Shown one piece after another: positions 12,296 through 16,324 of a stretch of DNA of 18,161 nucleotides (position 1 is the first letter of the stretch; each line of letters opens with the position of its first letter). The position numbers were made by a program, and so were the translations under genes. The notes below the pieces were generated by a model. That model had not been told where the DNA came from. It ran no database searches and saw nothing but the letters and a program-made list of their open reading frames with translations. The stretch lies in the UHGV virus genome UHGV-0095938; one strand, given 5' to 3'. The DNA comes from a virus.

Positions 12296-12416
12296 TTCTT
12301 ACTATCTCCATAGGTAAATAATTTGTGTTTTTATCGTGCACCATTGACAGTCATCCTTGACCACGCCGGGCACCCGACCGTATACCGGGCCGTTCGGTAC
12401 TGAAAGTACATTTTTA

Positions 12417-12662: not shown

Positions 12663-12734
12663 TGAACTTATGGTTCATATTATGACGGAACTGATAGTAC
12701 AGTCAATACCTAATATAGTTGAACTTATGGTTCA
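12663..12734. promoter_or_regulatory. Immunity switch: two identical 15-bp operators flanking divergent PR-like and PRM-like promoters
   Basis: TGAACTTATGGTTCA occurs at 12663-12677 and again at 12720-12734. A minus-strand promoter has -35 TTGACT (12706..12701), a 17-nt spacer and -10 ATAATA (12683..12678). A plus-strand TAATAT (12711-12716) sits just upstream of the cI ATG. Confidence 0.6.
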
Positions 12735-13434
12735 ACAGAAAGAGCGTGAAACTTTCTCGCAGAGGCTTGCGCTGGCCTGTGATAAAGCGGGATTACCTTT
12801 GCATGGTAGGCAGGCTGATTTAGCTGTCAGGCTTAAGGTCACACCAAAAGCCATTAGTAAATGGTTCAACGGGGAGTCAATACCAAGAAAAGACAAGATG
12901 GAATCTTTGGCTTCGGTGCTGGGAACCACTGCGGCATATCTGCATGGCTATGCTGATGATGACGGTATCACGGTAAATCATCTATCAAGATCAAATGATT
13001 CTTATCGTGTTGATGTATTGGATGTTCAGGCGAGCGCCGGGCCAGGAACCATGGTTTCCAATGAATTTATAGAAAAGATAAGAGCAATTGAATATACGAC
13101 CGAGCAGGCAAGAATTTTATTTAATGGAAGGCCACAGGAAAGCGTAAAAGTCATCACGGTTCGCGGTGACAGCATGGAGGGAACCATCAATCCGGGAGAT
13201 GAGATCTTTGTTGATGTATCCATAACCTGTTTTGATGGCGATGGCATTTATGTGTTTGTATACGGGAAAACAATGCACGTTAAGCGCCTGCAAATGCAAA
13301 AGAACAGGCTTGCCGTCATCTCTGACAATGCCGCTTATGATCGATGGTACATAGAAGAAGGTGAAGAAGAGCAACTTCACATTCTAGCCAAAGTCCTCAT
13401 TAGGCAGTCAATCGATTACAAGCGATTCGGATAA
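12727..13434 (+). CDS. cI: CI-like prophage repressor (HTH plus S24 LexA-type peptidase domain)
   Basis: 235 aa from the ATG at 12727. N-terminal HTH-like region (QADLAVRLKVTPKAISKWFNG) and C-terminal GDSM...KR autocleavage motifs. The ORF-track start at 12562 is an unlikely upstream extension that overlaps cro. Confidence 0.85.
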   Translation: MVQQKERETFSQRLALACDKAGLPLHGRQADLAVRLKVTPKAISKWFNGESIPRKDKMESLASVLGTTAAYLHGYADDDGITVNHLSRSNDSYRVDVLDVQASAGPGTMVSNEFIEKIRAIEYTTEQARILFNGRPQESVKVITVRGDSMEGTINPGDEIFVDVSITCFDGDGIYVFVYGKTMHVKRLQMQKNRLAVISDNAAYDRWYIEEGEEEQLHILAKVLIRQSIDYKRFG

Positions 13435-13449
13435 AAATAAATTTCCTTA

Positions 13450-13540
13450 AAGTTCACTAACTTATGATGTAGTGAGCTTTTTATACCCATAAAATGTACT
13501 ATTGGTACTTTACATTAATGAACTTTAAGTACATCATAAG
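13450..13540. promoter_or_regulatory. Putative OL/PL region
   Basis: Degenerate operator-like sites CTAACTTATGATGTA (about 13457-13471) and TGAACTTTAAGTACA (13519-13533). An 11-bp inverted repeat CTTATGATGTA / TACATCATAAG lies at 13461-13471 and 13530-13540. Confidence 0.35.
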
Positions 13541-13695
13541 CCCATAGACGAACGGCGCGTCTTTAAACCATGCGTCGGGAGCGCGGCGGGTTCAGGATGA
13601 ACGGCAATGCTGCTCATTAGCGAGAAGGCTTTTTTGCTTTTAGTCACAAAAAGCAAAGCAGCTTTTTGATATAGAAAAAGAAAAAGGAGGCTGAT

Positions 13696-14139
13696 TTGAA
13701 GAGTGCTACAGTTTACACGGCAATGAGAGTTAAGCAATATGGCGGCGTACCTTCGGTAGAGGTAAGGTGTGATGATAAAAGAACCAAAGTTGTTACTGAT
13801 TGCCTTCTGCTTTTTAAAAGCATAGATGAGGTAATTTTTATTGGCGCTGAAAATCTTCACCCTTTGATAAAAGCAGAGATGAAGCAATGTGCAATCGATG
13901 CATTGGGAGTTGGGCAAGGCAAGTCTCAGATCGAAGCAAAGCAAATGCTTACAGAGCTTGAAAGCAGCAGACGTAGACAAGCAAGCAGGGCAAGACAATT
14001 TCACGATGCGATCGCAGGATGGAGCAGAGAGCTTATGTCTTTAAATGTAGACATACAGAGAGGAATTGATATTCCAACAATAAGGTCAAGAATAGGTACG
14101 ATCGCAGAGAACATGGAAAAGCTAAATCCAAAGAAATAA
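13696..14139 (+). CDS. Hypothetical protein (147 aa), TTG start, first gene downstream of the putative PL
   Basis: AGGAGG RBS 5 nt upstream of a TTG start; tandem stops TAATAA; intrinsic terminator directly downstream. AT-rich. Contains an internal Arg-rich stretch SSRRRQASRARQF. Confidence 0.55.
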   Translation: MKSATVYTAMRVKQYGGVPSVEVRCDDKRTKVVTDCLLLFKSIDEVIFIGAENLHPLIKAEMKQCAIDALGVGQGKSQIEAKQMLTELESSRRRQASRARQFHDAIAGWSRELMSLNVDIQRGIDIPTIRSRIGTIAENMEKLNPKK

Positions 14140-14141
14140 TA

Positions 14142-14165
14142 ACCCGCTAAGGCGGGTTTTTTATT
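14142..14165 (+). terminator. Intrinsic terminator
   Basis: ACCCGC-TAAG-GCGGGT followed by TTTTTTATT. Confidence 0.7.
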
Positions 14166-14274
14166 ACATAAATAACCGTATTTACTACCGCAAGCCACGC
14201 AGTGAAATGGGTGTGACTTGTGTTGGTCGCCAGAAAATGAAATTAGGCAGCAAACCACTTATTTGAGGTGAGAT

Positions 14275-14463
14275 ATGGAACGTAAATTTGAAATTTGGTT
14301 GGATTCCGGCGCAAACATTCATTCTTGCAAAAAGACAGTTGTAACACTCGATGATCTTGGCTTATCCGAGAATGAGTGGAATGAAATGGATCAGGACGAA
14401 AAAGACGAAAACATGCGTGATGTAGCATTTGAAACGCTTGATTGGGGATGGAAGGAAATTTAA
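14275..14463 (+). CDS. Small acidic hypothetical protein (62 aa)
   Basis: GAGGTG RBS 4 nt upstream of the ATG. About 17 Asp/Glu in 62 residues. Followed by an intrinsic terminator. Confidence 0.55.
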   Translation: MERKFEIWLDSGANIHSCKKTVVTLDDLGLSENEWNEMDQDEKDENMRDVAFETLDWGWKEI

Positions 14464-14468
14464 GTGAT

Positions 14469-14493
14469 GGCCGCATAGTCGGCCTTTATTTTT
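14469..14493 (+). terminator. Intrinsic terminator
   Basis: GGCCG-CATAGT-CGGCC followed by TTTATTTTT. Confidence 0.65.
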
Positions 14494-14515
14494 GGCATAA
14501 ACAACAGAGGCTAAC

Positions 14516-14806
14516 ATGGAATTTAAAGGTACTGAAGGTAAGTGGGAAATAATGATGGATGGCGATGAGATTAAAATCATCCAGGCAGACTCACTTGAAA
14601 ATGGCGCAGGCTGGCGTTCGTATATTGCAATCTGTGAGGAAGTTCAATGCATTGAAGATGCCAATCTAATAGCGGCAGCACCAGACCTTTTAAATGCCAT
14701 GCAAGCGATGCTAAACAAGGCATACAAGCAAAAATGGAATGACCATTATCCTGATGAAGTATCGAAAGCACTGTCAGCAATCAGCAAGGCTCTGGGAGGT
14801 GAATGA
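14516..14806 (+). CDS. Hypothetical protein (96 aa)
   Basis: ORF with an AGAGG RBS; its stop overlaps the next gene's start (ATGA). Confidence 0.55.
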   Translation: MEFKGTEGKWEIMMDGDEIKIIQADSLENGAGWRSYIAICEEVQCIEDANLIAAAPDLLNAMQAMLNKAYKQKWNDHYPDEVSKALSAISKALGGE

Positions 14807-15006
14807 TGTGCGAGTTTTATGAAGCAGATATCAAACGCCCAGAAATGGCAAGTGATGCGACATTACGTGATTACTTCGCGGCAAAGGCTATGCAAGCAAT
14901 GATTAGCAATCCATCGATTATCGATAATGATTCTGATGGAGCTGTTAATTATGCAGCAAGCGCTGCATATAAGTTTGCAGACGCAATGCTCAAAGCTCGC
15001 GAATAA
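14803..15006 (+). CDS. Hypothetical protein (67 aa)
   Basis: Translationally coupled to the upstream 96-aa gene. Followed by a perfect 9-bp stem hairpin and then an intrinsic terminator. Confidence 0.5.
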   Translation: MMCEFYEADIKRPEMASDATLRDYFAAKAMQAMISNPSIIDNDSDGAVNYAASAAYKFADAMLKARE

Positions 15007-15101
15007 GCACTGTGTATTCATTCCAACGAGTGAATACACGGAGCAATGTCGCTCGTAACTAAACAGGAGCCGACTTGTTCTGATTATTGGAAATCTTCTT
15101 T

Positions 15102-15125
15102 GCCCTCCAGTGTGAGGGCTTTTTT
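15102..15125 (+). terminator. Intrinsic terminator
   Basis: GCCCTC-CAGTGT-GAGGGC followed by TTTTTTAT. Confidence 0.7.
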
Positions 15126-15191
15126 ATATGCATACCAATAACGCTTCACTCGAGGCGTTTTCGTTATGCAATCAAACAGAAGGAGCATCCT

Positions 15192-15362
15192 ATGCAACAG
15201 TTCGCTATTGCAGGGGCGGCATCGGTTCGCCCTTTCAACCCGATTTTATCGGTACAGCATTCACGAAAAAATATTTTAACCGGAGCAGACTTTAAACAAC
15301 CAAGAATGAAAAGCTTGCTCGAAAAGCTTTGGGATATTTTGAAACAACAAGGCCGTCCATGA
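15192..15362 (+). CDS. cIII: CIII-like protein (56 aa)
   Basis: ATG at 15192 with an AGGAG RBS 6 nt upstream. N-terminal MQQFAIAG and C-terminal LWDILKQQGRP resemble lambda CIII (MQYAIAGW ... LIDILNQPGVP) as recalled. Confidence 0.55.
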   Translation: MQQFAIAGAASVRPFNPILSVQHSRKNILTGADFKQPRMKSLLEKLWDILKQQGRP

Positions 15363-15517
15363 GTTTTACAGATAACTGGTCAGACGAAGAATTCATTCGT
15401 CAGATGAAAGAATTAATCGGTAACGAAGGAGATATTCATGTCACTTGCAACCACAGTGAAGGAGAGCAAGTTACAGAGACGCATGTACACGCAGAAAGCT
15501 CTCTGGTATCGCCATAA
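15359..15517 (+). CDS. Small hypothetical protein (52 aa, kil-position)
   Basis: ATG overlaps the stop of the CIII-like gene (ATGA). Acidic product. Weak RBS. Confidence 0.4.
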   Translation: MSFTDNWSDEEFIRQMKELIGNEGDIHVTCNHSEGEQVTETHVHAESSLVSP

Positions 15518-15616
15518 TGGTGACCGCGAAGGAATGCGGGTATGCCTTAATTTGTCACGAGTCGAAGTATTAAATCAGCGTTATTTCCTTGGGCCGTGTC
15601 CATTCTGAGGTGAATT

Positions 15617-16324
15617 ATGGATTTGAACAAATTCGATGAGCCATTCAGCCCTGAAGATATCGAATGGCGAATACAGCAAAGCGGTAAAACACGCGATGGC
15701 AAGGTATGGGCTATGGTGCTGGCTTATGTAACGAACAGGGCAATCATGAAACGCCTGGACGATGTTTGTGGCAAAGCAGGATGGCGCAATGAATACCGCG
15801 ATATTCCCAACAACGGCGGAGTTGAATGCGGCATATCAATAAAGATTGATTCCGAATGGGTAACCAAATGGGATGCTGCTGAAAACACGCAGGTAGAAGC
15901 CGTCAAAGGTGGTCGTTCCGGTGCAATGAAGCGCGCTGCCGTTCAGTGGGGAATCGGTCGGTATCTGTATAACATTGAGGAAGGTTTCGCACAAACATCT
16001 CTCGATAAAAAGCAGGGATGGCACAGGGCAAAACTCAAGGATGGAACAGGATTTTACTGGCTCCCTCCATCGCTGCCGGGATGGGCAATCCCAGCATCAG
16101 ATAACAAACCATCACCAGAAAATACCAACCAGAAATCTCCATCGGTTGACTGCGAGCAAATCCTGAAAGACTTCAGCGATTATGCGTCGACAGAAACTGA
16201 CAAGAAAAAACTCATCGAACGTTATCAGCATGACTGGCAATTAATGGCTGGCAATGAGGATGCGCAGGCTAAATGCGTTCAGGTAATGAACATCAGAGTT
16301 AACGAACTAAAACAGGCGGCATAA
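15617..16324 (+). CDS. Rad52-like single-strand annealing protein (recombinase)
   Basis: 235-aa ORF immediately upstream of ssb. The GVECGISI and AAVQWGIGRYLY motifs are consistent with the Rad52/Sak fold, judged from memory. Confidence 0.6.
   Translation: MDLNKFDEPFSPEDIEWRIQQSGKTRDGKVWAMVLAYVTNRAIMKRLDDVCGKAGWRNEYRDIPNNGGVECGISIKIDSEWVTKWDAAENTQVEAVKGGRSGAMKRAAVQWGIGRYLYNIEEGFAQTSLDKKQGWHRAKLKDGTGFYWLPPSLPGWAIPASDNKPSPENTNQKSPSVDCEQILKDFSDYASTETDKKKLIERYQHDWQLMAGNEDAQAKCVQVMNIRVNELKQAA

Follow-up and report, generated by a model that had tools for sequence, protein, structure and literature searches.

Three small genes of families without assigned function in the variable ral region of a lambdoid early-left operon

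Results

The locus

The stretch of DNA analysed here (the window, 18,161 nt) is a lambdoid prophage with the immunity of phage HK022. Its positions 14166-15130 hold the gene of an acidic 62-aa protein, an overlapping pair of genes for a 96-aa and a 67-aa protein, three terminator-like sites and a strong hairpin. This part of the lambdoid early-left (PL) operon is its accessory (“ral/gene 17”) region, known to be variable. The first-pass annotation had set the 62-aa ORF and the overlapping pair between a 147-aa gene and a CIII gene, and all of them were found there; it had also equated the slot with the lambdoid ral region, which relatives carrying homologues of Ral and P22 gp17 in this slot, as lambda and P22 do in theirs, confirm. 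The features used below are:

12336-12392, minus strand: putR antiterminator RNA site, HK022 type, mapped from the O276 annotation (99-100% identity to HK022/O276)
12727-13434: cI, mapped from the O276 annotation
13509-13537, plus strand: PL promoter, HK022 type; -35 at 13509-13514, -10 at 13532-13537 (promoter scan TTTACA/17/CATCAT)
13553-13615, plus strand: putL antiterminator RNA site, HK022 type, annotated “putL: antiterminator RNA” in HK022/O276
13696-14139, plus strand: 147-aa gene, TTG start, strong RBS; phrog_13686 (E 5e-92), no assigned function
14141-14165, plus strand: intrinsic terminator after the 147-aa gene; 7-bp GC-rich stem followed by TTTTTTATT; -11.9 kcal/mol, z -3.2
14174-14266, plus strand: 3' remnant of the N antiterminator gene, last 30 codons, without start codon or arginine-rich motif
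14275-14463, plus strand: 62-aa protein, Pfam DUF7167 (PF23768), phrog_8831; ORF with a Shine-Dalgarno-like sequence upstream
14469-14500, plus strand: intrinsic terminator after DUF7167; GGCCG-6-CGGCC followed by TTTATTTTT
14516-14806, plus strand: 96-aa protein, phrog_1273, homologues carrying PF27050; Shine-Dalgarno-like sequence upstream
14803-15006, plus strand: 67-aa protein; 4-nt ATGA overlap with the 96-aa gene, Shine-Dalgarno-like sequence, PHROG family match
15007-15127, plus strand: lambdoid “bsq4” boundary and tL2a; 14-bp hairpin (15007-15044), spacer, terminator tL2a (15102-15127)
15192-15362, plus strand: cIII, right-hand border of the slot; phrog_550 (E 1e-22), 100% identical to WP_001183771.1

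Position, strand and flanks are those of the ral region of lambda and P22 (N-ral-...-cIII; 24-ral-17-c3 in P22), with the first PL gene on the left and bsq4/tL2a and cIII on the right. The content differs: this prophage has neither ral nor gene 17, and carries DUF7167 and the 96-aa/67-aa pair instead; putL and the 147-aa gene replace nutL and N, the latter being left as a remnant only.

CIII is an inhibitor of the host FtsH protease, and WP_001183771.1 occupies the same position in related prophages. Just downstream (15359-15608, plus strand) we noticed two overlapping small ORFs of 52 and 56 aa, homologous to HK97 gp42.1/gp42 (matched via Sf6 and Sf101 genes annotated as similar). They carry the PHROGs label “recombinase”, which looks like an annotation transfer from the neighbouring Rad52-like annealing-protein gene at 15617-16324.

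A composite early-left operon

The segment 11959-13676 is 99.1% identical to phage O276, a phage of HK022 immunity, and its last part (13420-13676) is 100% identical to both HK022 and O276. All of cII, putR, cro, cI, oL/PL and putL are 99-100% identical to HK022/O276. The O276 annotation was transferred by an offset (window position = position in O276, L004, + 8919); the -35 and -10 of PL then coincide with the annotated HK022 pL. The site putL lies directly downstream of PL, and from this arrangement the early-left operon, on the plus strand, is assigned to HK022-type factor-independent put RNA antitermination. In HK022 itself, this antitermination is established to read through terminators. 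At the gathering threshold Rfam gave nothing meaningful over the entire window, putL and putR included, because it holds no model for put sites; at E <= 5 the best match within 13400-15300 was STnc370, on the minus strand of the terminator 14131-14182, with 32 bits against a threshold of 54.

The identity to HK022 stops at 13676. The stretch from cII to putL is shared with HK022 at 99-100% identity, but in the early-left operon (PL-putL-nun... in HK022) nun is swapped here for the unrelated 147-aa gene, which occupies its position, and the genes downstream come from N-type phages. The 147-aa protein found no match in Pfam, NCBIfam or PADLOC; compared with an 88% identical homologue (in L034), its gene has a dN/dS of 0.04, which indicates strong purifying selection. 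An arginine-rich stretch inside the protein, SSRRRQASRARQ, recalls the RNA-binding motifs of N and Nun. The copy of the gene in E. coli OkiPb01689 (L002) has a frameshift and an annotated length of 89 aa.

On the 3' side of the terminator of the 147-aa gene sits the remnant of N. N itself is absent from the operon, where only its final 30 codons were found; their translation (NRIYYRKPRSEMGVTCVGRQKMKLGSKPLI, then the stop) is identical to the C-terminus of N in IME10-like and Sf101 phages, and their DNA is 99% identical to the stretch upstream of DUF7167 in a related locus (L019). In such N-type phages DUF7167 begins 9 nt after N. The remnant marks the join between the HK022-type put block and an N-type PL operon: the operon is a recombinant, in which a block with the HK022 immunity, put sites and the 147-aa gene meets, within N, the PL operon that stems from a phage of the N type. 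The locus illustrates cleanly how an N-type PL operon can be re-fitted with the put antitermination of HK022.

Three genes under selection

That the three genes are real and under purifying selection is indicated by their substitution pattern: amino-acid identity of 45-60% is kept while synonymous sites are saturated. The ORFs are conserved with pN well below pS, and their first reading as genes holds. The same reading had held that none of the three is recognisable from sequence, which is wrong: the 62-aa protein belongs to DUF7167, homologues of the 96-aa protein carry PF27050, and all three match PHROG families, none with an assigned function. For the same three proteins, searches against PDB sequences found nothing, the NCBIfam scan gave no match, and the Ral HMM (PF11058) did not match, whereas the true Ral of a related locus scores 147 bits with it. 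PADLOC defence families gave 0 matches at E <= 1 for the 147-, 62-, 96- and 67-aa proteins. Full-text searches of the literature for DUF7167, PF23768, PF27050, the PHROG identifiers and peptide motifs returned no papers.

The 62-aa protein is strongly acidic, as first described at about 27% Asp/Glu: 17 of its 62 residues are Asp or Glu (27.4%), with a net charge of -10 and a pI of 4.2. Its match to DUF7167 (E 2e-8, 34.7 bits for a gathering cut-off of 24.4) spans residues 3-62, on positions 1-58 of the 60 of the profile, and the identical protein is named “DUF7167 family protein” at NCBI. Searching 1.84 billion representatives with the profile yielded 186 clusters at E <= 0.001, nearly all of stand-alone proteins of 55-70 aa, which share the motifs WLDSGAN(I)HS, G-x-[ST]-x-EEW and DWG[WFY] and conserve aromatic residues at three positions. 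Acidity runs through the family: among 52 diverse members the median net charge is -10 (range -19 to -5) and the median pI 4.2. In comparisons with homologues of 45-60% identity, pN comes to about 0.27-0.35 for a pS of 0.6-0.9 (e.g. 0.27 vs 0.83). The AF2 model (pLDDT 80) predicts a small beta-beta-alpha-alpha-alpha-beta domain; no fold or sequence similarity was found to any solved PDB structure, DNA mimics included.

The family ranges from lambdoid coliphages to phages of Pantoea and Synechococcus (a cyanophage); in the distant phages the gene adjoins those of ThyX, ribonucleotide reductase, DNA polymerase A and SbcC-like proteins. In phage mEp043 (L012/L013, 4001-4185) it is frameshifted near its 5' end, and is thus dispensable there. 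A 58-aa variant starting at an alternative ATG occurs on 25 contigs. We also looked at fusions and duplicates as clues to function and rejected them: a metagenomic DUF7167 protein of 126 aa (P0286) carries an N-terminal RF-1/peptidyl-tRNA hydrolase fragment that is borderline (35.4 vs 35 bits) and is probably a merged gene call, and the tandem duplicates that exist are uninformative.

The 67-aa gene is, from the ATGA overlap, translationally coupled to the 96-aa gene. PF27050 comes from precomputed hits to homologues 92-95% identical to the 96-aa protein; the Pfam scan of the 96-aa protein itself gave no match. This protein has a variable N-terminal part, a conserved EDANLIAAAPDLLEAL motif and a helical hairpin ending in AISKALGEE; the AF2 model predicts an N-terminal three-strand beta-meander, at low confidence, and confidently the C-terminal helical hairpin. 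Recombination breakpoints fall at the EDANLIAAAPDLLEAL motif, which makes it a mosaic break. Members of the family are also found in virulent phages of Klebsiella, Salmonella, Cronobacter and Proteus, and all their records are “hypothetical” except for a few labels that belong to adjoining genes. The 67-aa protein is 100% identical to gp33 of Shigella phage Sf101 (AII27857.1, which is UDP0057 in Supplementary File 3 of Silas et al.); its relatives across Enterobacteriaceae have variable N-termini and near-identical C-terminal 48 residues.

Terminators and boundary sequences

Each unit was described at first as ending in an intrinsic terminator, and three plus-strand sites, all with a T run behind them, agree with this (14141-14158, 14469-14484 and 15102-15119); their hairpins have folding energies of -11 to -12 kcal/mol (z -2 to -3.2). 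In all, 14 terminator-like sites were counted in the scanned region, against 6.0 +/- 2.2 in shuffled sequences. The last ~32 nt of the DUF7167 terminator are 100% identical in about 300 complete E. coli genomes, where they stand behind unrelated genes, e.g. of the Nmad5 family, and the terminator is kept in a relative (L009) in which DUF7167 joins bsq4 directly. It is apparently a second junction that cassettes share.

The 9-bp hairpin reported at 15012-15039 is real and longer than described, with 14 consecutive pairs inside 15007-15044 and a folding energy of -21.7 kcal/mol (z = -6.7; none of 200 shuffled sequences folds as well); it lacks a U tract. With the spacer and terminator that follow (15007-15127), it matches 327 phage records at 97-100% identity, among them lambda (97.6%), HK97 (100%) and Sf6 (98.3% over the annotated bsq4/tL2A). 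Sf6 is annotated there with “bsq4; boundary sequence” and “terminator, homology to phage lambda; tL2A”, and displays the same mosaic boundary-sequence architecture; O276 has tL2a annotated. This near-identity, together with the same position upstream of the cIII region, places the element among the bsq4/tL2a boundaries, and in the alignment it is invariant whatever gene precedes it. The 14-bp hairpin may serve in RNase III processing, in transcript stabilisation or as a recombination linker. Reading hairpin to terminator (15007-15127) as an sRNA was dropped, the element being an annotated bsq4 boundary/tL2a that is present in lambda itself.

A slot with exchangeable content

The slot had been suspected to be a variable cargo site, and comparison across related prophages shows just this: gene content differs between conserved junctions. 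Viral contigs were scanned for DUF7167 loci (a 16-sequence alignment). From the first PL gene to cIII, L001 has DUF7167, the 96-aa/67-aa pair and cIII; L003 has Ral, the pair and cIII; Sf101 has Ral and the pair, then a 322-aa gene before cIII; in L009 DUF7167 is followed directly by cIII; in L002 and in HK97 (gp45) the slot is filled by an unrelated 156-aa gene. Since there are loci with DUF7167 but no pair (L009), and others in which Ral takes its place beside the pair (L003, Sf101), the cassettes are independent, and an obligatory linkage of DUF7167 to the pair was rejected on the evidence of L009. We read the region from these sequences as shuffled cassettes joined at conserved junctions: the N 3' remnant, the shared terminator, and bsq4 with tL2a. 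Among 5426 complete E. coli genomes, the slot flank (bsq4/cIII) is found in 2288, this DUF7167 gene in 31 and this 96-aa/67-aa pair in 16.

Some relatives have Ral at the exact position held here by DUF7167. Others (L039, L040, L041, L044 and L049) have Ral (PF11058, E 1e-43) and DUF7167 in one operon, and we rejected on this ground the idea that the two are alternative alleles of one function. In these IMG/VR arrays (e.g. L044, 4219-5192) Ral is followed by DUF551 or another gene of ~60-70 aa, then by DUF7167; in L040 and L044 a PF27050-like gene stands between Ral and that small gene, and in one array a P22 gp17 homologue (PF17420) comes after DUF7167. Right before DUF7167, the small middle genes all end in ...PPAE at the C-terminus, a hint of a further junction.

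In 11 of 36 loci DUF7167 has a PF27050-like gene within ~600 bp; this proximity may reflect a functional linkage or merely a shared slot. In L070 (4445-5201) three genes, one 96-aa-like, one 67-aa-like and DUF7167, adjoin each other at 3-bp spacing, in an order unlike that of the window, the latter two at only 43-48% identity. In other loci the same slot holds a DUF2528 protein, and in L037 (4184-4783) a 199-aa pentapeptide-repeat protein lies just upstream of DUF7167; some pentapeptide-repeat proteins are DNA mimics.

Discussion

The feature is real and was correctly described, but it is ordinary: catalogued families without assigned function between known boundary elements of a known mosaic accessory region, to which it adds little. 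What these genes do for the phage can nevertheless be weighed. The reading that we favour, with moderate confidence, is that they form two independently shuffled accessory cassettes of the PL operon—DUF7167 with its terminator, and the translationally coupled 96-aa/67-aa pair—expressed early in a put-dependent manner and encoding small, probably dispensable proteins, with counter-defence or host takeover as their likeliest role.

The promoter scan detected no promoter-like site between 14093 and 15365, including the stretches 14160-14275 and 14485-14515 that precede the 62-aa and 96-aa genes; with no detectable promoter of their own, the three genes would be expressed from PL, early after infection or induction. 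Given the identity from cII to putL with HK022/O276, the terminators would most likely be read through by putL RNA antitermination and not by N: by analogy with HK022, polymerase modified by the putL RNA would pass the three sites at which unmodified polymerase would stop. The proteins are probably dispensable, to judge from their rarity in the slot and the frameshifted copy of mEp043. They would most likely be small acidic binding or inhibitor proteins directed against a target of the host or of a competing element, and the slot does hold known counter-defence or exclusion-bypass genes in relatives (Ral, P22 gp17 PF17420). This target is probably not the type I restriction handled by Ral. A broader proposal, which we make tentatively, is that DUF7167 represents a new widespread family of small acidic phage inhibitors, acting in counter-defence or on a host protein and possibly as nucleic-acid mimics; as the family spans lambdoid coliphages to Pantoea and Synechococcus phages, the target would need to exist in enterobacteria and cyanobacteria alike.

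An acidic early protein in the place of Ral calls to mind DNA mimicry as a means to block type I/II restriction enzymes. With its 27% Asp/Glu and net charge of -10, DUF7167 has the high density of acidic residues expected of such mimics, the acidity is conserved in the family, and Ral sits in some prophages exactly where DUF7167 sits here. T7 Ocr, ArdA and T4 Arn likewise combine strong negative charge with early expression; however, they share no sequence or fold similarity with DUF7167, which is half their size or less and resembles no solved structure, mimics included. Its model predicts a compact beta/alpha domain of 62 residues built on a Trp core, with no evident elongated array of charges. 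Ral itself (PF11058, lambda restriction alleviation) is a small early protein too (~65 aa), but it is Cys-rich, not acidic, and has no sequence match to DUF7167; the two moreover coexist in one operon (L039, L040, L041, L044, L049), and DUF7167 reaches cyanophage and Pantoea phage. An anti-restriction role by DNA mimicry is possible for DUF7167 but unlikely to duplicate that of Ral, and we hold a restriction-blocking mimic filling the Ral slot to be improbable. We give a similarly low credit to the idea that the genes serve the phage's own DNA transactions, e.g. as modulators of replication or of the downstream recombination module. In lambdoid loci DUF7167 is indeed always upstream of, and on the same strand as, a Rad52-like, RecT or Erf recombinase module, and its distant homologues lie among replication and nucleotide-metabolism genes. 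But the gene is present in only ~1% of the prophages that share the slot, combines with three different types of recombinase and is frameshifted in the viable phage mEp043: these are features of accessory, not of core genes.

Gene-plus-terminator units are also typical of morons, and nun of HK022, in the neighbouring slot, is an exclusion gene expressed in the lysogen from its own promoter. The cassettes could then protect the lysogen by superinfection exclusion or defence, each being insulated by its terminator and expressed from the repressed prophage. This is quite unlikely: the scan detected no sigma-70-like promoter ahead of either the 62-aa or the 96-aa gene, the DNA that precedes DUF7167 is the tail of N, which DUF7167 follows by 9 nt in N-type phages, and PADLOC defence families gave no match. 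As to chance or decaying frames, the ORFs are short, lack a known function and are dispensable in some phages; yet dozens of comparisons give a pN far below pS, the motifs persist across 186 clusters, the AF2 models are reasonably confident, and ribosome-binding sites and translational coupling are intact. The selection analysis effectively refutes non-functional frames.

To return to counter-defence or host takeover as the favoured role, a published screen is relevant. Silas et al. tested 200 accessory genes in MG1655 and ECOR strains (bioRxiv 10.1101/2023.04.06.535777; Nat Commun 2025, PMC12373910) and reported anti-immune hits for genes 1, 87 and 169 on MG1655/lambda and 48, 63, 92, 116, 126, 143 and 148 elsewhere, with 68, 107 and 153 as weak or doubtful hits (PMC12373910). 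The motif strings of DUF7167 were not found in the supplementary files of this study, so that DUF7167 was probably not in the screen. Small, conserved, consistently acidic, presumably expressed early, found beside Ral and gp17 and probably absent from one large accessory-gene screen, DUF7167 makes a cheap and reasonable candidate to assay for anti-defence or host takeover. The library does include the 67-aa protein, as orf57/UDP0057, and Sf101 gp34, as orf123 (PMC12373910); neither is among the listed hits (PMC12373910). In Sf101, gp33 and gp34 have the same coupled arrangement, downstream of ral, and gp34 shares the C-terminal half of the 96-aa protein while its N-terminal domain differs.
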